Shown here: positions 1 to 64,000 of the stretch, one piece after another | Numbering within the stretch: position 1 is the stretch's first letter | How the letters are laid out: every line of letters begins with the position of its first letter | Virus record (IMG/VR): IMGVR_UViG_3300029906_000187 | Span: 537 to 64,536 of that record | Direction: 5' to 3' (one strand) | DNA from: a virus | DNA: 64,000 nt | Made by a program: the position numbers and the translations under genes | The notes under the pieces: generated by a model | What the model was told of the DNA's origin: nothing | Databases searched by the model: none | The model's input: the letters and a program-made list of their open reading frames with translations, nothing else

Positions 1-827
1 AGACTGTTAAACAGAGCATCTCTCAATCTGATGATGTGTGCGGAGCGCTCCTGCATATTTTGGCAGGCCTCCTCCAGTGCGGCAGCCATGGCACAGATCC
101 CCGGCATATTCTCGGTTCCTGCTCGCCTTCCTCTCTCCTGCGCGCCGCCCAGAATCAGGCTTTTCACGGGTGCGGTATTTCGCGCGTACAGCGTTCCAGT
201 TCCCTTGATGCCGCCGAATTTATGGGCGGACATGGTCAGGAAATCCACTTTCAGCTCCTTCATATCGATTGGCAAATGCCCAACTGCCTGTACTGCATCG
301 GTGTGAAACCACACCCGCATTTCCCGGCAGATTCTCCCGATTTCAGCAATCGGCTGCACCGTTCCGATCTCGTTGTTGACAAACATCACCGAAACCAGAC
401 AGGTATCATTTCGGATGGCCGCCCGCACCTGCTCCGGCTCGATGATTCCGCTTTCCGGTACCTCCAGCAGCGTCACCTCAAAGCCCCGCCTGCGCAGATC
501 CTCCAGCGGGAGCAGTACCGAATGATGCTCAAACGCTGTGGACACAATATGCCGCTTTCCGTAGTTCTTCATCATTTCCGCAACCGACAGGATTGCCTGA
601 TTGTTGGCTTCGCTGCCGCCGGATGTAAAATAGATTTCTTTTGCGTCGGCCCCGATGCATCGGGCTACCGTTTCTCTGGCCGCGGCAAGCAGCTCTGCTG
701 CCCGTCTCCCCTCTGTGTGCAGACTGGACGGATTGCCATATCCATCTGTCATACACGCGGTTGCCGCTTTTATGGCCGCCTCACACGGCCTTGTCGTCGC
801 GGCGTTGTCTGCGTAGATGCGTTTCAA
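1..827 (-). CDS. iscS: Cysteine desulfurase (IscS/NifS, PLP-dependent class V aminotransferase); 3' end beyond the window
   Basis: Manual translation from TTG at 827 (GGGGAGG RBS): MKRIYADNAATT...GNPSSLH...FTSGGSEANN...EHHSV...NNEIGTVQP...HTDAVQAVG...SAHKFGG...GGAQERGRRAGTEN. Absent from the ORF track because no stop lies in the window. Confidence 0.95.
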   Translation of the reverse strand, partial: MKRIYADNAATTRPCEAAIKAATACMTDGYGNPSSLHTEGRRAAELLAAARETVARCIGADAKEIYFTSGGSEANNQAILSVAEMMKNYGKRHIVSTAFEHHSVLLPLEDLRRRGFEVTLLEVPESGIIEPEQVRAAIRNDTCLVSVMFVNNEIGTVQPIAEIGRICREMRVWFHTDAVQAVGHLPIDMKELKVDFLTMSAHKFGGIKGTGTLYARNTAPVKSLILGGAQERGRRAGTENMPGICAMAAALEEACQNMQERSAHIIRLRDALFNS

Positions 828-1702
828 AGTACGTCCTCCCCATCAAACATCGTTAATTGCCGCGGATCATCTCCGACCCACCAGCGCATCACTGATTCCC
901 CGTCTTTCCAGATGTCATTTTCCGGTAAGCCTTTTTCCTGTTTACGCAGAAGCATCCGGTCAAACGCACGCACATAATTCTCTCTGTATTTCGGATACCG
1001 CAAAAACTCTTTCTTCATACGCGCGTATCCGCCCAAAGGACACCCGATGCACCCGATTCTGTGGAACCCGCAATGATACAGGGGATTTCCCTTGCAGCCG
1101 TAATGATGCAGAAAGCTCCATACATCCTCATCTGTCCAATCGATGATGGGGTTCACCATCGTTGTGGTTGTCCGATAGCAGTGCTCCACAAACCGCCTGC
1201 TCTCATCGTTGTCATCGTTTAAGATCAATCCGCCCTGCTTGCTTACACGGTGATTGATTCCTTCCTCTTCTGCCTGTTTCCGTGTGGTTTTCTCTTTTCC
1301 GATGATTTTGACCAATCCAGCACTTTCTCTCCGCTTGGGGCTCTCCGACCAGCGAACGCCTGTGATTCTGATCCTTCCGTCTCCACCACGTTCTTTCAGT
1401 TTCTCGCAGCAATATCTGGCCAATCTCGTTGGCGGCATCCCTTTTTCCACAATCAATTGCCACATGGTTTTTTGAGGGAAGCTGATGATCACGTCCTTCT
1501 GGCTCTTGATGTAATATACCGTCTCCGGTGCGTCCACTGTGGTCAGATTGTGGTATGCTTCAAATTTCACCCCGGAAAGCTCTGCCAGAATCTTGATGCA
1601 ATCGCTGTCCTTGCCGCCGGAATAACAAAGATAGTACGGTTCCGAGGATGGCTCGAATGCCTGTAGGTACGCGATCGCGCGCTTTTCTTTTTCTGTGTTC
1701 AA
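824..1702 (-). CDS. PAPS-reductase-family (PP-loop, DndC/SspD-like) protein
   Basis: SGGKDS PP-loop, RYCCEKLKE, TGVRWSES, NPIIDWT, RIGCIGCP. Confidence 0.9.
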   Translation of the reverse strand: MNTEKEKRAIAYLQAFEPSSEPYYLCYSGGKDSDCIKILAELSGVKFEAYHNLTTVDAPETVYYIKSQKDVIISFPQKTMWQLIVEKGMPPTRLARYCCEKLKERGGDGRIRITGVRWSESPKRRESAGLVKIIGKEKTTRKQAEEEGINHRVSKQGGLILNDDNDESRRFVEHCYRTTTTMVNPIIDWTDEDVWSFLHHYGCKGNPLYHCGFHRIGCIGCPLGGYARMKKEFLRYPKYRENYVRAFDRMLLRKQEKGLPENDIWKDGESVMRWWVGDDPRQLTMFDGEDVL

Positions 1703-1721
1703 TATTCCGCTCCTTTATTTC

Positions 1722-4494: not shown

Positions 4495-5412
4495 CTATAG
4501 GTAGAATTTGTGAGATTCACACCATTCCCCCCAGTCTATTTTCCTCCACTGCCCGGAATAAATATATTTCTGCGCCATCACGTTCTGCCATTTTTTCGGC
4601 ATGATACCCTTTCTCTGATCTTTGTACGGCATCCCATACAGGGTTGCTGTTTTCAACTTCCGCATCGCATATATCCGCTCCAGATCGTCCTGCAAATCAT
4701 CTGTCAGCAGACAGTAAATAAACAGCTTGGAATGAGGAATACCCCTTTCAGCAAGCATGTCTGCGGCTTTATACATGCCGTCGATCTGTGCTTTGCGGTC
4801 TACGGAAAACCGAATATATTTTTGCCACTTGCACCGAGCTAAAATATCCGCTGTTTCCGGCGTTACCAAAAACACACTCATTGCCTGATTGATGTCAAGC
4901 CTATAATCCGTCTCGGCCAGTTGCCGGAGCTGCTCAATCCCATGCGGACACGCGAGGATGTTATTGTCCATCAACGTCAGTTTATTTGTATCCTTTCGCA
5001 CAATTTCCCGCCATGTGCGATAGGGCTTGATCTCTCCCTCTTTTTGCGGGACATAGCACCAAGGGCATTTGTTCGGGCAACCTCTGGTCAGGAAGCCAAT
5101 TGCATAGTCGCAATCCGGATAAATCGAATAGTCTGGAAACATGCGGTCAATCTCGTCCGGGAGGTTTTCATAGATTCCATAGCCTGTTCCGCCCTTAATT
5201 GTGTGCTCCGGGAGATATGGATTTTCCGGGGTAAAGTCAAACACCTTGCTGGAATAGACCAGATCATACAAGTGCCGTTCAATTGCCGAAAACCACACGA
5301 CAGTATCCCCAAGTCGTTTGTGATATGCAGATAGCTTCATCAGCGCATAGTTCGGAAATTTTTTATAGGTTCCAAAATGATCCGCTTCCGCATCGTGTAA
5401 CGCAACAAGCAT
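4495..5412 (-). CDS. Radical SAM protein
   Basis: TRGCPNKCPWC (CxxxCxxC) and DNN motif. Confidence 0.85.
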   Translation of the reverse strand: MLVALHDAEADHFGTYKKFPNYALMKLSAYHKRLGDTVVWFSAIERHLYDLVYSSKVFDFTPENPYLPEHTIKGGTGYGIYENLPDEIDRMFPDYSIYPDCDYAIGFLTRGCPNKCPWCYVPQKEGEIKPYRTWREIVRKDTNKLTLMDNNILACPHGIEQLRQLAETDYRLDINQAMSVFLVTPETADILARCKWQKYIRFSVDRKAQIDGMYKAADMLAERGIPHSKLFIYCLLTDDLQDDLERIYAMRKLKTATLYGMPYKDQRKGIMPKKWQNVMAQKYIYSGQWRKIDWGEWCESHKFYL

Positions 5413-5427
5413 AACACCCCTCCATTT

Positions 5428-5622
5428 TCACTTCCACTCAATCCGTATCTTCGCAAGTGTGTCATCGTACCGGACGGATATATCCACGTAATCCGGCAGC
5501 ACATCTGACGGCAGGCGGAAATCACGTAATTCGCGCTCAATCCTCCGCAGAATGCGGGCTTTCACTTCCGATTCCGCATCTTCCGGCAGATTCATGCCGA
5601 TCTGCTCACCTGTTGATGTCAT
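5428..5622 (-). CDS. Hypothetical protein
   Basis: 64-aa ORF overlapping the upstream stop (ATGA). Confidence 0.55.
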   Translation of the reverse strand: MTSTGEQIGMNLPEDAESEVKARILRRIERELRDFRLPSDVLPDYVDISVRYDDTLAKIRIEWK

Positions 5623-6575
5623 TTCAGTTTGATTCCCGTGATTTCTTCAAAAATATCCGCGTCAAAGTTCGGCATACTCCGGACGATCTTTTTGTCCTTC
5701 TCTGACAGGTGCTCCCACCAAAGCTGGCAGGCTTCTTCATATGAGTAATCTTTCAGGTATCCATCGATCATTTCTTTATCATGATTCGCTTGTATTTCTT
5801 CTTTTGTATATTCAACCCATTCTGTCAAAATAAATTTACCGGAGCACATCGCTCTGTAATATTCTGAATTTAGAAACTCGGTATATGTTAGATTTGTGTC
5901 TTTATTGAATAGTCGAACTGTTGGCTCCACTGTACAAAAGAATCCGGTAGAATGATCGCATTTGTTGAACATTCCCGTGTTCCAGTCTCCGCTGTTCCGG
6001 TCTCCGCTGTTCCGGTAGCCGCTGTTCCAGTCTCCGCTGTTCCGGTCTCCGCTGTTCCGGTAGCCGCTGTTCCAGTCACCGCTGTTCAGGCTACCGTTGT
6101 TCAGGCTACCGCTGTTCCAGTTACCGCTGTTCCAGTTACCGCTGTTCCAGTTACCGCTGTTCCAGTTACCGCTGTTCCAGTTACCGCTGTTCCAGCTACC
6201 GCTGTTCCAGTTACCGCTGTTCCGGTTGCCGCTGTTCCAGCAACCAGTATTGAATAATCTGGTATTCCCGTTGATAAGTCCCTTCAATATATCGAGTTCT
6301 TCTCCAGTGATCTCACGCAATATCCGAATATGATTGCTTCCGCATTTTTCTCCATCCGAAACTTCTTCGCCGAGCACCTCTATCTCGCAAAATCGATTGG
6401 TGTCATCATTACATGAATAGTATTCATGCACCTTTTGCAGACTGTCGCAATAGTGAAAAACCGTATCGCTGCATAATTCTAACGGCTTCCCGTGTGTATC
6501 GATCTTGTATTCCTTCCCTATCTCAAACTGAAAGCCGCGGCATTTCAGATCTTTGTCAAAGCCTTTGATTTTCAT
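5619..6575 (-). CDS. Pentapeptide-repeat (NSGxW) phage protein
   Basis: Start revised to MKIKGFDKDLKCRGFQFEIG (GGAGG RBS); 19 NSGxW-type repeats. Confidence 0.85.
   Translation of the reverse strand: MKIKGFDKDLKCRGFQFEIGKEYKIDTHGKPLELCSDTVFHYCDSLQKVHEYYSCNDDTNRFCEIEVLGEEVSDGEKCGSNHIRILREITGEELDILKGLINGNTRLFNTGCWNSGNRNSGNWNSGSWNSGNWNSGNWNSGNWNSGNWNSGNWNSGSLNNGSLNSGDWNSGYRNSGDRNSGDWNSGYRNSGDRNSGDWNTGMFNKCDHSTGFFCTVEPTVRLFNKDTNLTYTEFLNSEYYRAMCSGKFILTEWVEYTKEEIQANHDKEMIDGYLKDYSYEEACQLWWEHLSEKDKKIVRSMPNFDADIFEEITGIKLK
5967..6251 (-). repeat. 19 x 15-bp in-frame tandem repeat
   Basis: Unit TTACCGCTGTTCCAG; five exact copies at 6121-6195 and a duplicated 45-bp block. Confidence 0.95.
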
Positions 6576-6713
6576 TTTTTTCCTCCACACCCGCGCAGAG
6601 CCGTTTACAGGCCTCTGGCGGCATTTCTTGTTTTCAATGTTCAGATGTACCATTTTACGGCTTGCGTTCAATTCTACCGCATCCTTGCGTCTCTGCGCGG
6701 GCATTGGACAACT

Positions 6714-10020: not shown

Positions 10021-10050
10021 TTGACAAAGCGCGCCCAAATATGCTATAAT
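10021..10050 (+). promoter_or_regulatory. SigA-type promoter for HTH gene 10159
   Basis: TTGACA-18-TATAAT with extended TG. Confidence 0.75.
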
Positions 10051-10091: not shown

Positions 10092-10141
10092 CTACAACTT
10101 TGTAGTGTACTAATTATAACACTACAAGTTTGTATTGTCAA
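10092..10141 (-). promoter_or_regulatory. Leftward SigA promoter with two palindromic operators
   Basis: Minus-strand TTGACA (10141-10136)-17-TATAAT (10118-10113); CTACAA-N2-TTGTAG at 10092-10105 and CTACAA-N2-TTGTAT at 10122-10135. Confidence 0.8.
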
Positions 10142-10735: not shown

Positions 10736-11284
10736 ATGGCAAGAGCAATTGACGTTGCTAACTTCTTCATTGATGTAATCAATGGCTCCGAAGATGACAA
10801 TGTAACCAATCTCAAACTGCAAAAGCTGTTATACTTCTCCCAAGGCCTGTTCTTACGTAAGACCGGGAAACCGCTGTTCCCGGAAAAGATAAAAGCATGG
10901 AAGCACGGTCCGGTTGTACCAGAAGTGTATCACACGTTCAAGCAATATGAGGGAGCTCCTATATTAAAACCTTCCGGCGCATATTCATATGAGAGCTTTA
11001 CAAGCGATGAAAAAAATATTCTTTTTGATACGCTTCTTATATACGGAAAATATACCGGAAATGCCCTTGTAAATATGACGCACGCCCCAAATACACCTTG
11101 GAGCCAAGTTTATCAACAAAATTCTTCAGGGAAAGCCATCATTTCAAATGAGATTATCAAAGAATATTTTGATGGCCAACCTCAACCTTTGGATTTTGAC
11201 GCTATCATTGCTCGGATTCCAATTGTTGATAAACTTCCGAAAGAAGATTATGACCCAGAAGAAGACGCCCTTTGGGAGGAATAG
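10736..11284 (+). CDS. panA: Panacea-domain (DUF4065/SocA-like) antitoxin
   Basis: AIDVANFF...TNLKLQKLLYF...AWKHGPVVPEVY...TH...PW. Confidence 0.9.
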   Translation: MARAIDVANFFIDVINGSEDDNVTNLKLQKLLYFSQGLFLRKTGKPLFPEKIKAWKHGPVVPEVYHTFKQYEGAPILKPSGAYSYESFTSDEKNILFDTLLIYGKYTGNALVNMTHAPNTPWSQVYQQNSSGKAIISNEIIKEYFDGQPQPLDFDAIIARIPIVDKLPKEDYDPEEDALWEE

Positions 11285-17664: not shown

Positions 17665-17749
17665 TATGATAATCTAATTTTTTTTAGATTTGTGCGATTG
17701 TACAAATGCAACAATCTAAAATTAGGTAGAATTATTAAAGGAGTTGTAT

Positions 17750-18379
17750 ATGTTTTGGGAAAATTTCAAAAATCTTTGCGAATCTAAGGGTGAAACGCCT
17801 AACGGAGTATGTAAAGCGCTAAAATTTTCAAACGCTACCGCAACTCATTGGAAAAATGGAAAATCTCCAAATGCGAGATCCTTACAAGCAATTGCCGACT
17901 ATTTCGGAGTGACGGTCGACTATCTGCTCGGAAAGACGGACGAGAAAGAACCGAAATCTACCCGAAGGCCGGGCGTCCGCATCCCGGTTTACGGGAATGT
18001 TGCTGCCGGAGTACCGATTCTTGCAATCGAGAATTATGACAGCGATGATCCAGACGACTGGGAAGAGATTACCGAGAAAATGGCAAGCACAGGAGAATAT
18101 TTTGCTCTCCGGATTCATGGAGACAGCATGGAACCAAAAATCAGCAATGGAGACATTGTGATTGTACGTGTTCAGCAGACGATTGAATCCGGTGAAACTG
18201 CGATTGTGCGAATCAATGGCGATGAAGCAACCTGCAAGAAAGTGAAACGAACCCCGGAGGGCATGATGCTCATTTCCACCAATCCTGTATACGAGCCAAT
18301 GTTTTTCACGCCAAAGCAGGTTCAAGAGCTTCCCGTTGAAATCATCGGCAAGGTCGTTGAGCTGCGCGCCAAATTTTAA
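17750..18379 (+). CDS. CI/LexA-like repressor (HTH + S24 peptidase)
   Basis: N-terminal HTH; VAAG cleavage site; GDSMEP Ser and TCKKV Lys. Confidence 0.93.
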   Translation: MFWENFKNLCESKGETPNGVCKALKFSNATATHWKNGKSPNARSLQAIADYFGVTVDYLLGKTDEKEPKSTRRPGVRIPVYGNVAAGVPILAIENYDSDDPDDWEEITEKMASTGEYFALRIHGDSMEPKISNGDIVIVRVQQTIESGETAIVRINGDEATCKKVKRTPEGMMLISTNPVYEPMFFTPKQVQELPVEIIGKVVELRAKF

Positions 18380-19706: not shown

Positions 19707-20357
19707 TTGATGTATAGGGAGTATGTTTTGGAATATGTTTTTGAAGAACTAAAAAAATTGATAGATTACATCCAATCGGTCTATACCGAAATTACAGAGG
19801 AATGGATACAAGGAACATGTGCCAAAATAAACTTAAAAAAGCATCAGATTTCTGATGTTGAAGTAAACGGAACGATATATAAAAATATCATGAGTTATGT
19901 TCAGTTTTTAAATGAACATAATGTGGGAATTACATTACAGCTTTCAAAAGTCTGTTCATATCCAGTGACTGCTCGTGTAAAAACGCAAAATTCAATAGAA
20001 TATAAGATTCAAAGCTATAAAACCGAGACACACGAATATGGAAAAGTTCCAATCATCAAATGCATCAATGACTTGTTTGGTATTAGAATCCTTTTAGGAG
20101 CCACTTTGACATTTAAAGAAATTCATAAGTTTATTGAGGAATTTTATCCGGCCAAATGCAAATGTATTGATTCAACAAAACTTGATTATAAAGCTGTTCA
20201 TCTCTACTTTAAAAAAGATAATCAGTCATTCCCGTGGGAACTGCAAATATGGAATCAATGTGATGCCAGTGGTAATTTTGCATCCCACAAAAAATACAAG
20301 CAAGGATATACCGATTGGGAAAAAGAAAGCAAGGAAGGAGGGATCATCGATGGTTAA
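19707..20357 (+). CDS. RelA/SpoT-homologue small alarmone synthetase-like toxin (toxSAS)
   Basis: ARVKTQNSIEYK, NDLFGIR, YKAVHL, WELQIW synthetase motifs; followed by a Panacea gene. Confidence 0.85.
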   Translation: MMYREYVLEYVFEELKKLIDYIQSVYTEITEEWIQGTCAKINLKKHQISDVEVNGTIYKNIMSYVQFLNEHNVGITLQLSKVCSYPVTARVKTQNSIEYKIQSYKTETHEYGKVPIIKCINDLFGIRILLGATLTFKEIHKFIEEFYPAKCKCIDSTKLDYKAVHLYFKKDNQSFPWELQIWNQCDASGNFASHKKYKQGYTDWEKESKEGGIIDG

Positions 20358-21105
20358 GCATTATATTATTATGAGCAGTTCGTATACAGATGGCACTCGT
20401 GTTGCATTGGATATTACAGAGGCCTCCCTGCTCAATTCCGAATCCATCTCAAAAATCATCCAAAGCATCCAGAAGCGCTGTGGTAAAGATGTTCCTTTGT
20501 CGTCCCACCTGATCGAAACAAAATCTGACACATGGGCGTCGGTTGCAGAATATGATCCGTTCTTTGAGAATGTTGTTTGCACCAAGTCGGCAGAGGATTT
20601 TTCCTCAAAAATAAAGAAAAGCAGGGTATTATCCGGGATTGACGTTGCGAGATACATTCTCACGAAAATAAAATGTACGCATCTTTCTGTACAAAAGCTG
20701 GTGTATTTTTCGTATGCGGATTATTTGTGTACACGCTCGAAACGCCTATTTGAAGATCAAATTTATGCCTTCAGGCATGGTCCCATTGTCGAAAGCGTGT
20801 ATAAAACCTACAAAGGGAGCGGGTATCAATATTTAAACGAGTTAGAGCTTGACACAGATCGCGATGTGCAAACCGAGGTAACGGAATTGCCGGCAAGAAG
20901 CAGAATCCTCTTTGCGGAAGATGGAGTTGAAAAACTCCAATCGATCAATCAGACAATTGAAAAATATGGGAGATACTCCGCTCGGGAGCTTGTCGAGATC
21001 ACGCATCGTTCCGGCTCGCCGTGGTCTCATACCGATAGTTCCAAAATATATCAGATTATCACGGATGAGGTTATTATGGCGCACCATCGCGCAGAGCGTC
21101 CATAA
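20350..21105 (+). CDS. panA: Panacea (DUF4065) antitoxin with ~90-aa N-terminal extension
   Basis: IDVARYIL...QKLVYF...AFRHGPIVESVY...ITH..GSPW; ATG 20350 overlaps the toxin stop. Confidence 0.88.
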   Translation: MVKHYIIMSSSYTDGTRVALDITEASLLNSESISKIIQSIQKRCGKDVPLSSHLIETKSDTWASVAEYDPFFENVVCTKSAEDFSSKIKKSRVLSGIDVARYILTKIKCTHLSVQKLVYFSYADYLCTRSKRLFEDQIYAFRHGPIVESVYKTYKGSGYQYLNELELDTDRDVQTEVTELPARSRILFAEDGVEKLQSINQTIEKYGRYSARELVEITHRSGSPWSHTDSSKIYQIITDEVIMAHHRAERP

Positions 21106-21576: not shown

Positions 21577-22713
21577 TCAGTTCAGCATTTCGATAATTCT
21601 GAATTTATCGCTATCATAAACATGCCCATATGTTTGTGTCACCTGCTCCACGGTATCGCCGATCAGATCGGCAACTACCATAAAGTTTGCGCCCAAATGG
21701 ATCAGCATAGATACAAACGAATGCCGAAGGTCATGCATTCTGATCCTTTTCACCCCGGCCTTTTTTATGTAAGATTCAAATGCGTGAGAAATCGTATTTT
21801 CGTGGATTGGTTTCTCTCCCCCAAAGAAAAATGGCATCTGACCTTGATACCGGGTAAGTTCATCCTTTAACGTCTGGCAAATGGGCGTCGCTCCGATTTT
21901 TTCGTTTTTGGATGTTGTGATTTTGTATGGCGAGCCGTCTATGGTCTTTCTCGTATAGGTCTTGTTGAAAATAATCTGGTTCTCCTGTACATCATCATAG
22001 TGGAGCGCCAGAACCTCCCCTCTGCGCCTCCCGGTAAAAAACAGCATGGTAAAGATTGTGTGATGTGTGGGGTTGTCCACAACCGCGATGAACTTCTCAA
22101 ATTCCTCTCTTGTCCAAATCTGCATTTTGGTTTTGGAAATGCGTTTTTTGGGCTTTGCAACCTCCTTCAGATGGTTCGGGTATCCATGGCGGCTTTCGCA
22201 CCATGACAAAAAAGCCCCGAAGTGCCCCCGTATCCTTTCCAGATACTCTGTCGAATAGCTTTTCCCTGTAGCCGGATTTTGGGATGACCACAGTTCATCC
22301 TGCCATTGGTACAGCCTCTCTTTTGTCAAGTCTGTTATTTTGCACTCTCCCAACATCGGAATGATGATTGAATTGTACAGTCGAATTTTCCCATATATTG
22401 AGCTGTCTTTATTCTGATTATGGAGAGATAAAATATATTTTGGTATGAGATCGGCTACTGTCGGAACCAATTTGATTGTTTCTTGAGATTTCTTTTTAAT
22501 GGGATTATTTTTCACCAGCGTACATTTATCGGTGATAAAGGTTGCATGAGCTTCTTTGGCAGCTTTTTTTGTTAAAAACCCGGATAATTTCTTTTGTATT
22601 TCCTTCCCATCCATTGTTACGATACGAAACACGACGTCATATACGGTGCCGTGCTTTTTTGTTTTTCGCTCTTGGATAGAGCATTTCGTTGACGAAATAT
22701 AGTACTCAACCAT
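21577..22713 (-). CDS. int: Tyrosine integrase
   Basis: FTGRRRGEVLAL, HDLRHSF, LIGDTVEQVTQTYGH; N-terminal arm-binding-like segment. Confidence 0.93.
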   Translation of the reverse strand: MVEYYISSTKCSIQERKTKKHGTVYDVVFRIVTMDGKEIQKKLSGFLTKKAAKEAHATFITDKCTLVKNNPIKKKSQETIKLVPTVADLIPKYILSLHNQNKDSSIYGKIRLYNSIIIPMLGECKITDLTKERLYQWQDELWSSQNPATGKSYSTEYLERIRGHFGAFLSWCESRHGYPNHLKEVAKPKKRISKTKMQIWTREEFEKFIAVVDNPTHHTIFTMLFFTGRRRGEVLALHYDDVQENQIIFNKTYTRKTIDGSPYKITTSKNEKIGATPICQTLKDELTRYQGQMPFFFGGEKPIHENTISHAFESYIKKAGVKRIRMHDLRHSFVSMLIHLGANFMVVADLIGDTVEQVTQTYGHVYDSDKFRIIEMLN

Positions 22714-43833: not shown

Positions 43834-44319
43834 TTAGTCTCCTTTCTCCGGCGGAACCGGGAATGTCACATCGTATGGGAAGCCCTCTTGCTGTGGGATG
43901 TCACGGAGGGCTTGGCGGTATTTCGCCATGGGGCCAAAGACGGCGGATGCAATGGTTTTCAAAAAGCCGATCCATGCGGTAAATGTGGAGCCTTCCGGGG
44001 ATGTTATCCCCAGCCGGTCAAGGCACATCTCCTTGTCCGTTTCTGCCAGCAGCGCGTCGCGCTTGGCACGTACCTCCGCGGCCAGTCTGGCATATTCTGC
44101 ATTTCTGGCCGATGTCATCCACGCATCCAGTGTTTTCTGTACATTTTCCAGCAGGTTATCCCGATACGGTACCGGCATCCGGTATTCGTCGTACTGGTAC
44201 ATTGTCGCGCCCTCCCGCGTTTCCTCTGTGATGTTCTCCCGCAGGATTACTTCCGCGATCCCGTTTGCGGCAATCTCGATTTCCGCCGCCTCCGGTCTGA
44301 TGTTGCTTTCTGTCCTCAT
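43834..44319 (-). CDS. Fibre assembly chaperone-like protein
   Basis: VRAKRDALLAETD...YRQALRDIPQQEGFPYDVTFP. Confidence 0.75.
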   Translation of the reverse strand: MRTESNIRPEAAEIEIAANGIAEVILRENITEETREGATMYQYDEYRMPVPYRDNLLENVQKTLDAWMTSARNAEYARLAAEVRAKRDALLAETDKEMCLDRLGITSPEGSTFTAWIGFLKTIASAVFGPMAKYRQALRDIPQQEGFPYDVTFPVPPEKGD

Positions 44320-45343
44320 TTCTGATTGCCTCCTTCAGCTTTTTGATATTGATGTATGGCCTGATATATTTGGCATAATATTTGCGCGAATCGCTGTGAC
44401 GAATCCAGCCGAGATAAGACAGGACGGCACGTGCGTCCCGCACCGGAATGGTTTTCTTCTTCCGCATTTTGGAGATTCGCCGCCGGATGCGGAGCGCGTT
44501 TTTTCTCCGCAATGTCGTTTTGTTTCTGTAAAAGCGGAAGCCGAGCATATCGACCGGACGGGAATCCACCCGGAACACCTGCCAGTTTTCTTTCAGTGTC
44601 AGAGAAAGCGGCGCGATATATTCCGCGATCTGCCGGCGCACCCGGTGCAATTCCTTTTTATTGCGTCCGAACAGCACCATGTCATCCATATACCGCAGAT
44701 AATATTTGACGTGCAGCTTTTCCTTGATATAGTGATCCAGTCCCTCCAGATAGAAATTTGCCCACCACTGCGAGGTGTAATTTCCGATTGGAAGTCCTTG
44801 GCGATGACTGTCGATAATGACGTCGATCAGCCAAAGCACGTCTGCATCCTTGATTTTTCTGCGAAACACTGTTTTCAGTACATCCTGATTGATCGATGGA
44901 TAATATTTTTTTATGTCCAGCTTCAGGCAGTACTTTGTGTTTTTGCGGTCTCTGCGCATCCATCGCTCGATATACCGTTTCCCGTAACCGATTCCGCGGC
45001 CGGGAATGCTGCCGCAGCAGAATACGTACATGCCGCGTTGGAGCACCGTCTGCGTGACTTGTATCAGCGCCCAGTGGATAATCTGATCCGGGTAAAACGC
45101 CGGGCAGAAGATTGTCCGCTCCTTCTGCGTCGCTCCGTCTTTGATAACAAATGTTCGGTATGGCTTCGGTCGGTATTGCTTTGTCACCAGCATACCCCGT
45201 ATTGCTTCCGCGGCTTCCTGCTTATGCTCCATCACGTTGCACACGACGCGCCGATGTTTCTTTCCTTTCGCAGCATTTTCGATTGCCCGGAATATATTAT
45301 CAAGGTCGCAAATCTTTTCAAACAGATGGCCTTCCCGTTTCAT
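44156..45343 (-). CDS. DGR reverse transcriptase
   Basis: KGK, K.R.I, LKLDIKKYYPSI, GLPIGNYTSQWWAN (DGR-type SQ), YLRYMDD; 3' end overlaps the next gene. Confidence 0.95.
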   Translation of the reverse strand: MKREGHLFEKICDLDNIFRAIENAAKGKKHRRVVCNVMEHKQEAAEAIRGMLVTKQYRPKPYRTFVIKDGATQKERTIFCPAFYPDQIIHWALIQVTQTVLQRGMYVFCCGSIPGRGIGYGKRYIERWMRRDRKNTKYCLKLDIKKYYPSINQDVLKTVFRRKIKDADVLWLIDVIIDSHRQGLPIGNYTSQWWANFYLEGLDHYIKEKLHVKYYLRYMDDMVLFGRNKKELHRVRRQIAEYIAPLSLTLKENWQVFRVDSRPVDMLGFRFYRNKTTLRRKNALRIRRRISKMRKKKTIPVRDARAVLSYLGWIRHSDSRKYYAKYIRPYINIKKLKEAIRNEDRKQHQTGGGGNRDCRKRDRGSNPAGEHHRGNAGGRDNVPVRRIPDAGTVSG

Positions 45344-45801: not shown

Positions 45802-48057
45802 TTATGTACGGTGGTAAGAAAGACGCGCGCGGTAGCTGACGCCCGTACTCGACGGGGCGCCGTAGCAACCCCAGTAACAAGGCCCGGCGTACGAGCCATA
45901 GGTCCAGCTGCCGCCGACCAGCGCCGCGCGAACTGCGTAGCGCGGGTAATAGTAATAATCACTGTAATACGTTGTCGAGCCCGCGCCGATCTCCGATGTA
46001 ATGCGTACCCAAGGATACCGACTGTCAATACCGAGCTTTTTGGCATACCCATCCTGTGACGGAATATTGTACTGCAGCGCGACATAATCCTCTGTGATCG
46101 TCCCGTTTGCGTACTTTGTCGGATCGGGCAGATAATACGGGGTATACGTGTACGGGCTGTCGTCCGTGCCTTCTCCCGCGCGCTGTATCAGTATGTCGGA
46201 AATATAATTGAATACATTGCCATACGGAGATTCTTTTCCTCTGTATACGCAATTGTATTTGCCGCTTGTGTTCGACGTTGGTGACCCGCTTGACGCAATC
46301 ACGCTGTTGCAGGTGCCGTTGACATATCCGGCAGTCCATACAATATTGCCGACCGCGATGTCCACCGCCGCTCCGTCAAAGGCGATCGCCGAGTTGCTGT
46401 CGTCATATGCCGTAATGGCGGTAACAATCCGGTTTTCCGCGATCTGCGACCCTCCGAGCGATGTGCCGATACAGATGGTCTGACCGACGACATAATCAGC
46501 AGCCGTCGCTGTGGATACGATGATCTGATTGGTATCCGTTCCGGCAACGGTCGCGGTATCGCTGGCGCTGTACGGCAAACTGGTTGCACCCTTCATAACG
46601 GTCTGCACATCCCGTGTGGCAAACTCAACCCACATATACAGGCACTCGGTATACTGCTCGGCGCAGGTTGTCACAATATAGGCGTCTCCGGCTTTTTTGG
46701 CATCCGTCATCGCGCTATTAAGCGAATATATGTTGGGGAATACGCCCGTGCGGGATGTGGGTTTAGCGTCAACCAGTGCCATTGGGTAAGCCGCGGTATA
46801 AGCCTTCTGATACGGCGCGTCCTGACCTCCGTTTTTCAGAAAGATCGGTGCGGGGGAGTATCCGGCCAGAGGCGTTGCCGAGATGGCGATCTCCTCCGCG
46901 TCTCCGTCGTAAATATGACGGTAATAAAACAGGGAGTGCTCCACCCATACCTCTCCATTTGAACCATCTTCCACATATCCCGGTTCGCCTTTGTATGCGT
47001 TCACGACAAAGTTTCCGGATTCGTCCCAATACCCGCAGCAGCGACGGCGGGCAGACCACGGGTAAATACTGTCAAAGTCGTTCTGCGGGGCTTCCGTGTC
47101 CGTTCCGACGCCCGCGACCAGTCCGACGGCATTGTACAGGCGTGTCACGGTCGCGCCGCTATTTGCAGAGCCTTCAAAGCGCACGCCGTATCTCTCTCCC
47201 GGTCGATTTTGGTAGGTAATGCTCATCGGCACCGCTTGACCGTAGGCATTGACCGCTGTGACCGTTGTAGCGCCGTCCACATTGATCAGGTTGTCATCCG
47301 ACAGAAGGTCGGACAAATCCGTTTCCACCGCCTCGGGAAGCACATAGACCACGGTAACCGGTGTTCCGCTTGCATTCTGCTCCGCAAGATATGTTTTCCA
47401 TGCATCCACTGTTTCCCATGCCGTCTTGGACACACCGAAATCCAGCGCGTAACCGGCGCCGGGGGTCGTGTCTCCGCTGTACAGCGCGTTCTCTTCCGCA
47501 TGATATGCGCTCCCGGAATCATACGCAAAATGGCTGCACAGCTTGGCCTTGAGTGGATTGCACTTCATATTCAAAATCACATATCTGGTGAAATCGGTGA
47601 TCGATGGGTCAATGCCGCCCACGCTCCAGCTTTCGGTACCGTCCAAAACGATTCTCTTTACGATCTGCTGATAGGTCTTGGTTTCGGTAGAAACATCCCA
47701 AGTCACCAGATTGGAATCCGTTTGGCTGATGCCGTCTCCATAGCTGTCAAGCGCACGCACACCAGACGGAATTGCAAGTGTATTTCCATCTTTGGTGGAA
47801 TTGCTTTGCACCGCTGTCACTGCGGATGCCTGCAAGGTCAATGCATCCTCATTTTTGTACGTCATCCCGCCGATGGAAGTCACCTCGGCGTAGGGGAGCA
47901 CCCCTCCGGGAACCGTTGCGGCATAGGCAACACCCGTATCGGTCTGTGCAGTGACGTTCTGCTGCAGATTTGCAATCAGCTTGTTGTTCCGCTTCGCCAG
48001 CGCTCCTTTGATTTGATAATCCTTGGCTTTTAACCGAATATCGTTAATCTCTGACAT
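45802..48057 (-). CDS. DGR target protein (fibre/adhesin with C-type-lectin-like C-terminus)
   Basis: Ends RAALVGGSWTYGSYAGPCYWGCYGAPSSTGVSYRARLSYHRT. Confidence 0.9.
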   Translation of the reverse strand: MSEINDIRLKAKDYQIKGALAKRNNKLIANLQQNVTAQTDTGVAYAATVPGGVLPYAEVTSIGGMTYKNEDALTLQASAVTAVQSNSTKDGNTLAIPSGVRALDSYGDGISQTDSNLVTWDVSTETKTYQQIVKRIVLDGTESWSVGGIDPSITDFTRYVILNMKCNPLKAKLCSHFAYDSGSAYHAEENALYSGDTTPGAGYALDFGVSKTAWETVDAWKTYLAEQNASGTPVTVVYVLPEAVETDLSDLLSDDNLINVDGATTVTAVNAYGQAVPMSITYQNRPGERYGVRFEGSANSGATVTRLYNAVGLVAGVGTDTEAPQNDFDSIYPWSARRRCCGYWDESGNFVVNAYKGEPGYVEDGSNGEVWVEHSLFYYRHIYDGDAEEIAISATPLAGYSPAPIFLKNGGQDAPYQKAYTAAYPMALVDAKPTSRTGVFPNIYSLNSAMTDAKKAGDAYIVTTCAEQYTECLYMWVEFATRDVQTVMKGATSLPYSASDTATVAGTDTNQIIVSTATAADYVVGQTICIGTSLGGSQIAENRIVTAITAYDDSNSAIAFDGAAVDIAVGNIVWTAGYVNGTCNSVIASSGSPTSNTSGKYNCVYRGKESPYGNVFNYISDILIQRAGEGTDDSPYTYTPYYLPDPTKYANGTITEDYVALQYNIPSQDGYAKKLGIDSRYPWVRITSEIGAGSTTYYSDYYYYPRYAVRAALVGGSWTYGSYAGPCYWGCYGAPSSTGVSYRARLSYHRT
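45815..45930 (-). repeat. DGR variable repeat (VR1)
   Basis: 15 mismatches to TR over 116 bp, all at TR adenines. Confidence 0.97.
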
Positions 48058-60435: not shown

Positions 60436-61377
60436 ATGAACACAACAGAATATGAACAGGCAGCAGATCAGTATCTCGCTGCCCTGCCCTCTATGAAGAA
60501 ATCACAGAACACTATCCGCATGTATCGGCACATCCTGAACAGATATGCGGACTTCCTGCGCAATGAACAGAACCGCGGTACCACACCGCTTTCGGTGGTC
60601 GGCTGGCGCGTTTCCCTGTTTGATGAAGATCTTTCCGCAAACAGCGTCCGCTATTATATGACCGTCCTGCACGGCTTTTTTGAATGGGCGGTAAGAATGC
60701 ACATGTGCCCGGAAAATCCCGTAGATACGGCGGAAATCCCGGAACAGAAGGACGTCGCTTATAATTTGCTGACTTTAGATGAGATCAAACAACTTTTCCA
60801 ACAACAGCCCCATGGCTTGAACACCAAAACCATGCCAAGAAACCGCGCGATCATTTTCCTGCTGCTGCAGGCCGGGATGCGGAACAGCGAGCTCCGCAAT
60901 CTCCGCCTATGTGACCTGAACTTTGAACAGAACACTATCACGATACGGCATGGCAAAGGAGATAAGCGCCGGGAGATCGCCTTCCCACAGCTTGCACAGA
61001 GCGCCGTGAAGGCATATCTGGCAAGTGGGACGCGCCCTGCATGGGTAGATGATACCGCGCCTCTGTTTGGCTCTGACGCAGACCGGAACGGCCACAGCAC
61101 GGGCGGAACAGAATGGCATCCGCTGTCCTCTGCTGCTCTGCTTGGCATCGTCAACCGATATGTAGAGAGCTGCACCGGCCATAAAGGAATCAAGGTTCAC
61201 GCGCTCCGACATGCGGCGGCATCTCTCTGGGACGATATGGGCATCCCCATGCGCACAATCCAGACCGTATTGGGACACGCCAGCATCCGAACCACTGAAC
61301 AGATCTATGTAAAAATTCTGGACAAATCCAAGGCCGCGCAGAAGGTCAATCAGGCGTTTGAAAGCCTTTCCATGTAA
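60436..61377 (+). CDS. XerC/D-like tyrosine recombinase
   Basis: AGMRNSEL (R), GKGDK (K), HALRH, LGHASIRTTEQIY (Y); SAM-like N-terminal domain, no arm domain. Confidence 0.93.
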   Translation: MNTTEYEQAADQYLAALPSMKKSQNTIRMYRHILNRYADFLRNEQNRGTTPLSVVGWRVSLFDEDLSANSVRYYMTVLHGFFEWAVRMHMCPENPVDTAEIPEQKDVAYNLLTLDEIKQLFQQQPHGLNTKTMPRNRAIIFLLLQAGMRNSELRNLRLCDLNFEQNTITIRHGKGDKRREIAFPQLAQSAVKAYLASGTRPAWVDDTAPLFGSDADRNGHSTGGTEWHPLSSAALLGIVNRYVESCTGHKGIKVHALRHAAASLWDDMGIPMRTIQTVLGHASIRTTEQIYVKILDKSKAAQKVNQAFESLSM

Positions 61378-61432: not shown

Positions 61433-61606
61433 AACTATAGATGTGGAATATGTGTGAAAAAATCTCTCCATGATTCTGATTGTTTGTGTCGTTGAACTCT
61501 CTGCGGATAAATCCAATGGGATTCTTACTTCTCAATCGATCCTTGCATAGGTTTCACGCCTGAAGGTAGCGTTATCACGGCGAGTTTGATAATTTTGGAG
61601 AAATTT

Positions 61607-62230
61607 ATGGGAATTAAATTGATTGATTTGCTATTTCAAAAAACAAAGGGCAGAAGCAAGTATTTTTACAACATTATGCCAATAGACAATATTCCATCTG
61701 TGGTCAAGCACGGAATTTTGAGCTATAATTGCGCTATGCGCATACAACATTCTTCCATTGCGATGAATGAAGTTCAAGAACGTCGGGAAAAAGTGATTAT
61801 ACCAAATGGGCGGCCGCTTCACCAATATGCAAATTTATACTTTACATATCACAACCCGATGATGTACAAAAGGCGTAAGGTTGCGAATACAATTTGCTTA
61901 TTGGTAATTCATCCGAGCATTATCGAAACAGAAAATTGTATTTTGTCTGATCGGAACGCAGCAACAAATATGGTTAAATTTTATACGCCATATGAAGGTG
62001 TGAATCATATTGATTTTGATCTTGTCTTTGCTCAAAGTTGGACTGATGATGATCCATATATAGCCTCCAATAAAAAGGCAATTAAATGTGCTGAAATTTT
62101 AATTCCTGACTGTATCCCATTTAACTATATAGTTGGAGCAATTGTATTAAATGAAGAAGTAAAGGATAGGCTCATTGAACTTGGTTTTTCACGTGAAATT
62201 CTTATCCGGCCGAAAATGTTTTTCAATTAG
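61607..62230 (+). CDS. darT: DarT (DUF4433) ssDNA ADP-ribosyltransferase toxin
   Basis: IDNIPSVVKHGILS, YANLYF...NPMMY, SDRNAA, CAEILIP (catalytic Glu); start revised to ATG 61607. Confidence 0.9.
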   Translation: MGIKLIDLLFQKTKGRSKYFYNIMPIDNIPSVVKHGILSYNCAMRIQHSSIAMNEVQERREKVIIPNGRPLHQYANLYFTYHNPMMYKRRKVANTICLLVIHPSIIETENCILSDRNAATNMVKFYTPYEGVNHIDFDLVFAQSWTDDDPYIASNKKAIKCAEILIPDCIPFNYIVGAIVLNEEVKDRLIELGFSREILIRPKMFFN

Positions 62231-62243
62231 GGAGGAATGTGAA

Positions 62244-63353
62244 ATGGTGATTAAAATAGGCAATATATTTGAATCAAGCGCAAAAACGCTTGTGAACACC
62301 GTGAATTGCGTTGGAATCATGGGAAAAGGAATCGCACTTGAATTTAAAAATAGGTATCCAAAAATGTTTTCTGAATATGTTAAGTTGTGTAAGAATGGGA
62401 AAGTAATACCTGGAGTGCCATATTTTTATCAAGACCTTTCCGGAATTTCCATCATCAACTTTCCAACTAAAAATCATTGGCGCTCCCCCTCGCAACTCTC
62501 CTATATCATTTCCGGACTGGATTGGTTTAGAAATAACTACCAAACATACAATATTGAATCCGTAGCATTCCCTCCGCTTGGTTGTGGAAACGGCGGACTA
62601 AGTTGGGAGACAGTCGGTCCTATTATGTATTCAAAGCTAAATGATTTACCAATTCAAATTGAAATATATGCACCATATGGTGCCGCACCTCAACAAATTA
62701 CAGAACAATTTTTAAGAAACAGTGTTGCCAATAAAACAAACATCATAGGGGAACAGAAAAAGAAAATTAATAAGAACTGGCTATTGATTCTGGAAATCAT
62801 CAAAAGATTAAATCAAGATAAATACTCCCTAAATGTTGGTCGAACTATATTTCAAAAAGTTTGTTACTTGTTGACCAGAACCGGTGTACAAACCGGATTT
62901 CATTTCAGCGAAGGGCAGTATGGACCGTATTCTGTTGAGGTCAAACAAGCACTTGAATCTCTTTCCAATGCAAATCTTATGACAGAACGAAGGCTTGGAA
63001 ATATGGTTGAAACGATTGTATCTCCTTCATTTCAATTGGACATTCGCAATTATTCTTCTCAAGAATTGACATGTGTGCAAGCAACATACGATCTTTTGAG
63101 CCGAATCCAAAGTACTGACCAAGCTGAAATGATCGCAACTGTATTATTCTCCTATGATGAACTACTCAAAAAAAATAAATCTGTTACAGAGAAGCAAATT
63201 TTTGAGCATGTTCTTCATTGGAAGAACCATTGGAAAGGTACAAAAGAATCCGAAATCGTTTCAACAATTAAAAGTTTGTCTATGTTAGGATGGATGAAAC
63301 CGGATAGCAGCCATGATACGATGGGTCAACCTGACGATGATTGGTTATATTAA
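62244..63353 (+). CDS. darG: DarG macrodomain antitoxin
   Basis: TLVNTVNCVGIMGKGIALEFK, INFPTKNHW, PPLGCGNGGL; start revised. Confidence 0.93.
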   Translation: MVIKIGNIFESSAKTLVNTVNCVGIMGKGIALEFKNRYPKMFSEYVKLCKNGKVIPGVPYFYQDLSGISIINFPTKNHWRSPSQLSYIISGLDWFRNNYQTYNIESVAFPPLGCGNGGLSWETVGPIMYSKLNDLPIQIEIYAPYGAAPQQITEQFLRNSVANKTNIIGEQKKKINKNWLLILEIIKRLNQDKYSLNVGRTIFQKVCYLLTRTGVQTGFHFSEGQYGPYSVEVKQALESLSNANLMTERRLGNMVETIVSPSFQLDIRNYSSQELTCVQATYDLLSRIQSTDQAEMIATVLFSYDELLKKNKSVTEKQIFEHVLHWKNHWKGTKESEIVSTIKSLSMLGWMKPDSSHDTMGQPDDDWLY

Positions 63354-63471: not shown

Positions 63472-63675
63472 TCAATTCCTCTTTTTGTCTTCGGTATGGA
63501 TCTTGTTATCTGTCCGTTTCACCGGTTTTTCCAGTGAGTGCACCACAAAGCCGCCGCAATCTGGGCAGATTACGCAATCGCCTAAATGAACGTCCAATAT
63601 GTTGTAGGAAAACAAACATCCACATTTGTTGCATTCCGCTGTAAATTCTTTTTCCCCTGGCCTCAAAATTTTCAT
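63472..63675 (-). CDS. Small zinc-ribbon protein
   Basis: CNKCGC...CPDCG. Confidence 0.65.
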   Translation of the reverse strand: MKILRPGEKEFTAECNKCGCLFSYNILDVHLGDCVICPDCGGFVVHSLEKPVKRTDNKIHTEDKKRN

Positions 63676-64000
63676 TGTTGTTTCTCCTGCTTTTTTCTGT
63701 AAATTACAATCATCGATGGGAATGGAGCCGGTGCACTTGGCGTTCCGTCAGAATCCGTGAATCTCAACCGCCCGCGCACAAATCTGATTTCTGCTTTTCC
63801 GTAGATGTAATCGTGAAAATATGCAGTGTCTGTGCGGGCAGGAATCAGCAGAACAATCGTTGTGCCGCTCTGCGATTCTTCGTATGCCTTTCGCACCCAT
63901 TTCCCGATTTCCCTTCCGTATGGGGGATTGCAGAATACCGCTCCCCCACAATTCCATGATTGTTTCAGACCATCCGCTTCCGGGGTATAATAGTTTCTGC
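63672..64000 (-). CDS. Phage Dam-type N6-adenine DNA methyltransferase; 5' end beyond the window
   Basis: Frame open to the edge: DGLKQSW...VFCNPPYGREIGKWVRKA...VLLIPARTDT...IRFVRGRL. Confidence 0.9.
   Translation of the reverse strand, partial: RNYYTPEADGLKQSWNCGGAVFCNPPYGREIGKWVRKAYEESQSGTTIVLLIPARTDTAYFHDYIYGKAEIRFVRGRLRFTDSDGTPSAPAPFPSMIVIYRKKQEKQQ

Follow-up and report, generated by a model that had tools for sequence, protein, structure and literature searches.

A NifS-type cysteine desulfurase gene coupled to a viral "cysH"-family PP-loop gene in a phage of gut Clostridia

INTRODUCTION

Genes labeled cysH are among the commonest viral auxiliary metabolic genes of gut and environmental viromes and are routinely read as signs of phage-driven sulfate assimilation. 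At the left end of a 64,000-nucleotide (nt) stretch of viral DNA, called the window below (bases 537-64536 of the 65,508-bp IMG/VR record IMGVR_UViG_3300029906_000187), a gene of this kind, encoding a PP-loop protein of the phosphoadenosine phosphosulfate (PAPS) reductase family, overlaps the gene of a cysteine desulfurase. The locus raises the question of what the two proteins do, and whether they do it together. A preliminary description of the window had proposed a DndA-DndC-like pair, i.e., a minimal sulfur-modification module that could mark phage DNA by phosphorothioation (PT). The reading that we favor, at about even confidence, is that in this phage lineage a tail-less NifS of host origin serves the PP-loop/[4Fe-4S] enzyme as its dedicated donor of sulfur, of the cluster, or of both.

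Both genes are intact and overlap at their junction

The locus comprises the following features.

1..827, minus strand: NifS-type class I cysteine desulfurase, N-terminal 275 codons (PF00266)
824..839, minus strand: coupling junction, with GGAGGA (839-834), a 6-nt spacer, and a TTG start (827-825) overlapping the TGA stop (826-824) as TTGA
824..1702, minus strand: PAPS-reductase-family PP-loop/[4Fe-4S] protein, 292 residues (PF01507, phrog_424)
1700..1715, minus strand: ribosome-binding site AAGGAG (1715-1710) and TTG start (1702-1700) of the PP-loop gene, 7-nt spacing, read from the sequence

The minus-strand desulfurase gene starting with TTG at 827, which the preliminary description had proposed although it was missing from the list of open reading frames (ORFs), proved to be real. 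It ends 325 nt to the left of the window, within the record (L001:212-1363, minus strand), and encodes a complete protein of 383 residues that has the fold of class V aminotransferases (Aminotran_5) and the PLP-lysine motif SAHKF; the match to PF00266 has an E value of 4e-67 for the 275 residues in the window and of 4e-83 at full length. The best curated model was TIGR03402 (NifS) with 450.2 bits, under its cutoff of 530.75, followed by IscS (349.5 bits) and DndA (TIGR03235, 334.9 bits versus a cutoff of 480). The PADLOC models for SspA and DndA both scored about 440 bits and therefore do not discriminate. Of the earlier assignment to IscS/NifS, the class I desulfurase stands, with NifS as the highest-scoring model, whereas a specific identity as IscS, DndA, or SspA does not. 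The protein keeps the PLP lysine K203 in SAHKF, the catalytic cysteine C326 in the loop SGSACTSG, H102, D177, Q180, and R352, all invariant with cellular NifS, as well as every other residue that is invariant among 20 aligned sequences.

The PP-loop protein matches PF01507 (PAPS_reduct) with an E value of 5e-17 (62.9 bits, cutoff 22.5) and phrog_424, annotated as "phosphoadenosine phosphosulfate reductase" and known as the viral "cysH" family, with an E value of 1.3e-33. Its N terminus, MNTEKEKR, is common to its homologues, and it carries the motifs SGGKDS, a CC pair (RYCCEKL), and CIGCP. Across 35 homologues, down to 35% identity, SGGKDS, P91, R96, C98, C99, K103, E104, R117, E120, R124, C218, and C221 are invariant. 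This set corresponds to an ATP-type PP-loop and to the CC...CxxC ligands of a predicted [4Fe-4S] cluster of the adenosine phosphosulfate (APS) reductase type; the CxxC aligns with that of APS reductases. Neither the window protein nor any of the 34 homologues compared has a cysteine after the CxxC, whereas a C-terminal ECG(L/M)H was present in five of five APS reductases sampled.

The TTGA overlap between the desulfurase start and the stop of the SGGKDS/CC/CxxC protein, likewise part of the preliminary description, can be read directly in the sequence. The identical 4-nt overlap occurs in the relatives L085, L086, and L088, and in each of 10 contigs examined that carry a NifS of the phage clade, this gene lies just after a PP-loop gene of 90 to 96% identity. 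A short gap separates the two genes in L006 and L007, and two tiny ORFs, one of them a remnant of a NifS N terminus, lie between them in L121 to L123. Both genes are under purifying selection, with dN/dS ratios (nonsynonymous to synonymous substitution rates) of 0.09 to 0.16 for the PP-loop gene and 0.19 to 0.31 for NifS. A prediction of the complex of NifS and the PP-loop protein scored 0.06 against a mark of 0.32 and weighs neither for nor against binding.

Some further observations concern the junction. The remnant (L121:8722-8811, also in L122 and L123) is a 30-codon NifS N terminus of 60% identity that precedes, together with the tiny ORF, the full NifS gene, and is a trace of duplication or insertion at the coupling junction. 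Between L085 and the window, dS is 0.22 for the PP-loop genes and 0.54 for the adjacent NifS genes, which suggests recombination between the genes or allele swapping, with the pair retained. An ORF of ~120 residues coupled after NifS was ruled out as a member of the cassette, being missing from L085.

The pair lies in the early operon of a complete phage genome

The first 157 nt of the record recur at its end with 99.4% identity, i.e., with one mismatch (L001:1-157 versus L090:5353-5509), and two near-identical phages read straight over the record's join. Because of this repeat and of the relatives crossing the join, the genome is circular or terminally redundant and complete, with a size of ~65.35 kb; the IMG/VR label "linear" is probably due to the single mismatch in the end repeat. 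The desulfurase is therefore phage DNA. The preliminary description had considered that sequence to the left of the window might reveal a host chromosomal iscS, and the gene ends within the phage record instead. It is located ~20 kb from the integrase, and therefore not in host flank, inside a leftward early operon, where the preliminary description had also placed it; HAD-like and ASCH-like proteins are encoded in this operon before the PP-loop gene and NifS. By annotation, the record is a temperate siphovirus-like phage of gut Clostridia, and the relatives of both genes indicate hosts among Oscillospiraceae, Lachnospiraceae, and Ruminococcus. Genes of the phage were called by codon-usage score, and Pfam results cover 70 of its ORFs; where statements below refer to the Pfam families listed, 25 of the 30 matched families are meant.

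The PP-loop protein forms a family apart from CysH, DndC, and SspD by sequence and profile comparison

Curated models of assimilatory CysH and APS reductase fell far short of their cutoffs (TIGR02055, APS reductase, 35.7 versus 235.3 bits; TIGR00434, 28.1 versus 165.1 bits; NF002537, 34.3 versus 154 bits) and aligned only the last ~45 residues of the domain. The DndC model TIGR03183 gave 21 bits versus a cutoff of 290.4. Among PADLOC models, DndC matched with an E value of 3e-6 without any single significant stretch, BrxP matched with an E value of 2e-9 over residues 178 to 250 only, and the SspD models gave no match at E ≤ 0.01. The best curated matches were archaeal "hypothetical" families, e.g., PRK13795 (65 versus 456 bits). 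One trait of DndC, SGGKDS together with four cysteines for a [4Fe-4S] cluster, is present and invariant, the cluster itself being a prediction.

References for a maximum-likelihood tree were drawn from sampled genomes and comprised DndC, BrxP, APS reductase, and archaeal PRK13795 genes, together with SspD-type genes from Bacillota sspD-B-C clusters of confirmed identity. Each group was monophyletic; the phage family formed a clade of its own (support 100/99), and the APS reductases were separate (100/100). The PP-loop protein thus does not group with assimilatory CysH or APS reductase; a grouping with CysH was the outcome that the preliminary description had named as evidence against its proposal. 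The phage family, DndC, and a group comprising the archaeal proteins, SspD, and BrxP were joined in a polytomy, with a long-branch warning. Profile-profile comparison with hhalign ranked BrxP first (score 221), followed by SspD (204), archaeal PRK13795 (193), DndC (147), and APS reductase (122), with probabilities of 99.8 to 99.9 for BrxP and SspD.

The AlphaFold2 model of the protein is confident, with a predicted local distance difference test (pLDDT) value of 89.7. The nearest solved folds to this model are APS reductases (2goy, template modeling [TM] score 0.49 by query). CysD and FAD synthase come next, and TtuA structures are weaker matches at ranks 36 to 50. Among Swiss-Prot models, the best fold matches are the uncharacterized archaeal proteins MJ0066 and MJ0973. 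Judged by the missed curated cutoffs, the separate clade, the absence of a C-terminal cysteine, and the profile ranking, the protein is not a CysH and not a member of DndC or SspD, and represents a distinct, compact relative of sulfur-inserting PAPS domains.

The phage NifS appears to be a trimmed copy of a clostridial nifS

The phage NifS clade is small, with 81 to 95% identity, and its next relatives are cellular clostridial NifS proteins of 55 to 60% identity. One examined cellular relative (L089) lies in a cysteine synthase-nifS-nifU-Rrf2 neighborhood. By sequence, the phage gene appears to derive from a host clostridial nifS-nifU gene. Proteins of the phage clade end ~17 residues before these cellular relatives, all of which keep the tail except P0324. 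In Escherichia coli IscS, a C-terminal helix (residues 379 to 391) contacts IscU, and IscS(Δ376-404) does not bind IscU (PMC2854127). No NifU or NifU_N scaffold was found among the Pfam families listed for the phage. Because the tail was lost and no NifU was carried along, the captured NifS, by analogy, may no longer serve a scaffold.

A common viral family, a rare pairing

The PP-loop family is very large: its cluster representatives number at least 4,870 at E ≤ 1e-5, and at 50% identity it has 3,020. It is abundant in gut phages and prophages, in whose early regions it usually stands alone, one such copy being gp45 of the Ruminococcus gnavus phage phiRgPS_6. Co-occurrence was assessed in 71 other PP-loop loci (44 from IMG/VR, 23 from GTDB genomes, and four copies of a common prophage), with 6 to 8 kb inspected on each side, and from the opposite direction in ~90 other desulfurase loci of viral contigs. 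The pair is not a general module, as no desulfurase was found in the former set (0/71) and a PAPS-family gene was near only one desulfurase of the latter. This locus, L130 (IMGVR_UViG_3300045988_145532), is an independent case, with a PP-loop protein of 339 residues and ~30% identity and a NifS of 396 residues and 54% identity that retains the tail.

L130, 1961-8588, gene order: dCTP-deaminase-like, PAPS_reduct, zinc ribbon, phrog_9298-like radical SAM (two ORFs), Fer4_12/radical SAM activase-type, NifS, serine recombinase

No constant genomic partner of the PP-loop family emerged among 74 loci. Typical neighbors in these loci were SSB, zinc-ribbon ORFs, replication genes, and ASCH-like proteins. 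A radical SAM gene (phrog_9298) was near PAPS-like genes in 7 of the 74 and in L130; it was rejected as a true partner, a PAPS-family gene occurring in 5 and a desulfurase in none of 40 radical SAM loci. A methyltransferase-like gene was near the PP-loop gene in 17 of the 74 loci. In phage NatCom_17901 (PV036423.1; L124:3745-8062), the start of a PP-loop gene of 61% identity overlaps the stop of a DNA methyltransferase gene (5001-5004), and a second methyltransferase gene, of 2.2 kb, follows 15 nt after it. As a sign of DNA modification such proximity is guilt by association and weak, because methyltransferases are common in that part of phage genomes.

A proposed lineage-specific sulfur relay

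In this temperate, siphovirus-like phage of gut Clostridia, the cassette may constitute a two-gene sulfur relay that is specific to the lineage. The phage would have captured a host nifS from an operon of the nifS-nifU type; the captured gene would have lost its C-terminal tail, which is the scaffold dock in E. coli IscS, and would have been placed in translational coupling behind the PP-loop gene. NifS would most likely make a persulfide from cysteine and hand it to the PP-loop enzyme as substrate sulfur, for its cluster, or both, as DndA for DndC; according to the title of reference 6 in PMC12839542, DndA is a desulfurase that assembles DndC as an iron-sulfur (Fe-S) protein. The PP-loop enzyme, in turn, may first activate its substrate at the expense of ATP and then insert sulfur, like SspD, BrxP, and DndC. 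This chemistry is suggested in place of PAPS reduction because SGGKDS is intact, the CC...CxxC ligands are present, and the C-terminal cysteine of the reductases is absent. The gene identities, catalytic residues, coupling, phage location, conservation, selection, and phylogenetic position are established above, whereas we infer that the two proteins cooperate, that the chemistry is a thiolation, and that its target would be nucleic acid (DNA backbone or base), the choice of nucleic acid being a guess.

Several observations weigh against a dedicated donor. None of the 71 other PP-loop loci has a desulfurase of its own, and five sampled host genomes with prophages carrying the PP-loop family encode two to three desulfurases each; NifS is thus dispensable for the function of the family and could be a general booster. 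The intervening small ORFs or gap in some variants mean that strict coupling is not essential. The argument from tail loss is carried over from E. coli IscS, and the cellular homologue P0324 is tail-less as well. The cooperation of NifS and the PP-loop protein is itself deduced from sequence. Finally, a weak APS reductase activity has been reported for the archaeal relative MJ0973 (PMC3448663).

A wider conjecture, which we consider unlikely, is that the viral "cysH" PP-loop/[4Fe-4S] family as a whole might be a self-sufficient nucleic-acid sulfur-modifying enzyme, a stripped-down relative of SspD and BrxP that is served by host desulfurases in most phages and by its own captured NifS in this lineage. 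As an anti-restriction or anti-defense mark, it would thiolate RNA or phage DNA (backbone or base) and would need no ATPase or nickase partner of the kind found in the Dnd, Ssp, and type 4 bacteriophage exclusion (BREX) systems.

Alternative explanations

General Fe-S supply, in which NifS boosts the clusters of several phage or host Fe-S enzymes without a specific hand-off, had been the fallback of the preliminary description and is the alternative that survives best, although we rate it as rather unlikely. The operon encodes a further protein that bears on this explanation.

4495..5412, minus strand: radical SAM protein (PF04055, E 1.7e-8; phrog_9298, E 7e-71)

This protein is the second Fe-S enzyme of the operon beside the PP-loop protein and a possible second client of NifS. 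A supply function would also agree with L130, where NifS follows PAPS-like, phrog_9298-like radical SAM, and Fer4_12/radical SAM activase-type genes, and with the cellular source gene coming from a nifS-nifU assembly operon. Against this, the phage did not take over a NifU or IscU, and its NifS no longer has the tail by which E. coli IscS docks its scaffold. Moreover, NifS always adjoins the PP-loop gene and not the radical SAM gene, L121 keeps the pair without a radical SAM gene in ~7.8 kb upstream, and none of the 40 other loci with the phrog_9298-type radical SAM family has a desulfurase.

The proposal of the preliminary description, a minimal DndA-DndC- or SspA-SspD-like module that phosphorothioates phage DNA against restriction and relies for site recognition and ATPase function on partners that are unknown or come from the host, is improbable. 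The composition fits, a desulfurase plus a PAPS-domain protein being the core of Dnd, Ssp, and BREX type 4, and so does the profile similarity, which is closest to BrxP and SspD, with the PADLOC matches to BrxP and DndC given above. The operon of the pair also ends in DNA methyltransferases: Dam in this phage, and a C5 methylase plus Dam in relatives.

63672..64000, minus strand: Dam-type DNA adenine methyltransferase, C-terminal part, reached across the circular join

On the circular map, this gene follows NifS after three small ORFs, and PF05869 matches the equivalent gene in L006, L007, and L122. In Dnd, Ssp, and BREX type 4, however, the PAPS-domain protein is required but does not suffice: these systems also depend on an NTPase (DndD or SspC/BrxC) and on a component that recognizes or nicks DNA (PMC12914056, PMC12707154). 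The minimal set for PT synthesis is brxP plus brxC, and isolates with a PAPS-domain gene but without the matching NTPase gene (dndD or brxC) had no PT (PMC12914056).

The preliminary description had seen no DndB, DndD, DndE, SspB, or SspC in the window, and none was found here either. Specifically, the Dnd partner models TIGR03185 and TIGR03233 gave nothing at E ≤ 1 in the complete record, while the DndD search was positive in all 14 control genomes; no DndE-, TusA-, or ThiS-type Pfam matches occurred in the small neighboring ORFs. The SspB/DUF4007 models PF13182, PDLC02762, and PDLC02765 matched nothing in the record, a weak negative in the case of PF13182 and PDLC02765, which were also blank in the controls. 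An SspC/BrxC-type ATPase was absent, the only ATPase among the Pfam families listed for the 70 ORFs being a DnaC-like IstB_IS21 protein. In addition, the protein scores far under the DndC cutoff, matches no SspD model, and at ~290 residues lacks the extra domains of DndC, SspD, and BrxP. What stands of the DndA-DndC-like pair is the coupled core of desulfurase and PAPS domain, with a profile nearest to SspD and BrxP in place of DndC; what stands of the DNA-marking module is that both genes are intact, phage-borne, and coupled, but the required NTPase and DNA-recognizing partners were not found. The data give no demonstration of DNA phosphorothioation.

That NifS is a moron whose place next to the PP-loop gene is accidental, and which persists because it benefits phage or lysogen in some unrelated way, is more doubtful still. 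Such an origin would suit a pairing limited to one lineage, the small ORFs or gap between the genes in some variants, and the mosaic nature of phage early regions. It fits poorly with the overlap and good ribosome-binding site retained across variants whose NifS genes diverge up to a dS of 0.54, with the second, independent co-occurrence in L130, and with a chemistry that matches known pairs of desulfurase and PAPS-domain protein.

Auxiliary sulfur metabolism, in which a CysH-type APS/PAPS reductase and cysteine-sulfur mobilization by NifS would reshape host sulfur assimilation, draws on the wide labeling of viral homologues as cysH, assimilatory sulfate-reduction genes (bioRxiv 10.1101/2021.01.05.425418, PMC10914622), on the APS reductases as nearest solved folds (2goy), and on the weak activity of MJ0973 (PMC3448663), but is very improbable given the missing ECGLH-type cysteine, the intact ATP-type SGGKDS loop, the score of 35.7 bits against the 235-bit cutoff of TIGR02055, the position in the tree apart from APS reductases, a profile score against these that is the lowest among the five groups compared, and the absence of cysC, cysD, cysN, and sulfite reductase among the Pfam families listed for the phage.

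Relation to known systems and significance

The pair is a variant of the known theme of a desulfurase with a PAPS-domain protein. With SspA-SspD and BrxP it shares a desulfurase plus a PAPS-domain PP-loop protein with SGGKDS, R-x-CC-x-x-K, and GC-x-x-CP. SspD and BrxP differ in having 560 to 800 residues and extra domains and in working with SspB/DUF4007 and a large SspC/BrxC ATPase (L116-L119), whereas the phage protein has 292 residues, forms a separate clade, and comes from a phage in which such partners were not found. DndA-DndC is similar in pairing a NifS-like desulfurase with a PP-loop [4Fe-4S] protein of the PAPS family; DndC, however, has ~450 to 510 residues, and the profile score of the phage protein to DndC is below those to SspD and BrxP. 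CysH (PDB 2goy, 7lhr) has the fold of the top solved match and an aligned CC...CxxC ligand pattern, yet it possesses a catalytic C-terminal cysteine (ECGLH) and a degenerate PP-loop, whereas the phage protein lacks that cysteine and keeps the ATP-type PP-loop intact. As a member of viral "cysH"/phrog_424, the phage protein is set apart by its own coupled cysteine desulfurase; no description of a coupled desulfurase with viral "cysH" was found in the literature searched. Clostridial NifS-NifU resembles the phage NifS at 55 to 60% identity with all catalytic residues kept, but in the phage, NifU and the C-terminal tail are missing and NifS follows a PP-loop gene.

Short, scaffold-independent desulfurases beside ATP-dependent, sulfur-inserting PP-loop enzymes are also known from the NifZ-ThiI and YrvO-MnmA pairs of Firmicutes, and TtuA and TtcA are [4Fe-4S] thiolases. 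These enzymes differ in belonging to PP-loop subfamilies other than PAPS_reduct.

For the PP-loop family, the reading as sulfate assimilation is probably wrong, because the catalytic cysteine is missing, the ATP-pyrophosphatase loop is kept, and the nearest enzymes are the sulfur-inserting ones of Ssp and BREX type 4. The captured, trimmed, and coupled desulfurase suggests that a widespread viral gene carries out sulfur-transfer chemistry, and the recruited NifS is the first genomic hint of the enzyme's need for activated sulfur. The main value of the pair is that it offers a compact two-gene approach to what viral "cysH," a very common gene, does. Should the product prove to be a thio-modified nucleic acid, phages would have a new modification of very wide distribution; should NifS only supply Fe-S clusters, the locus would be a modest case of a phage that imports the means of cofactor assembly.

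Other features of the phage

Further features of the window are as follows.

10113..10141, minus strand: candidate promoter of the leftward early operon, 12/12 consensus with extended -10, from a consensus scan only
17744-18379: CI-like repressor
21577-22713, minus strand: tyrosine integrase
60436-61377, plus strand: second tyrosine-integrase gene, beside a DarTG pair

No tRNA genes were found in the window. Also annotated in the phage are RecE/RecT, SSB, a replication initiator, a DnaC-like loader, RusA, and a run of small ORFs. A second perfect 12/12 sigma-70 consensus promoter with an extended -10 TG lies at 10021-10050 on the plus strand, ~90 nt from the minus-strand candidate (10141-10113); by consensus scan only, the two probably form the early switch region. 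The early operon also encodes a protein of 361 residues (5619-6704, minus strand) in which a DUF7666 domain is combined with many consecutive NSGNW/NSGD repeats of the pentapeptide type (Pentapeptide_2); in relatives, this protein has 268 and 368 residues. Two proteins with the SocA/Panacea antitoxin domain are present according to Pfam, probably at 10736-11284 and 20134-21105 (both plus strand), a placement that rests on common phrog_1281/phrog_10390 matches; no toxins were identified as their partners.

A DarT-DarG toxin-antitoxin or defense pair occupies 61586-63353 on the plus strand (Pfam DarT, E 6e-43, and Macro, E 3e-15; PADLOC DarG, E 5e-93, and DarT, E 7e-42), the hits being placed, by size only, on two ORFs that overlap (61586-62230 and 62175-63353). 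At the corresponding place, L007 has a pair of AAA_21 and RloB genes, and the adjacent second integrase gene may mark a nested mobile island. In the block of tail genes, a reverse transcriptase (phrog_1423, E 2.5e-116; RVT_1) is encoded at 44156-45343 (minus strand), beside 45802-48057 (minus strand); judged from gene content, this arrangement beside tail-protein genes looks like a diversity-generating retroelement.

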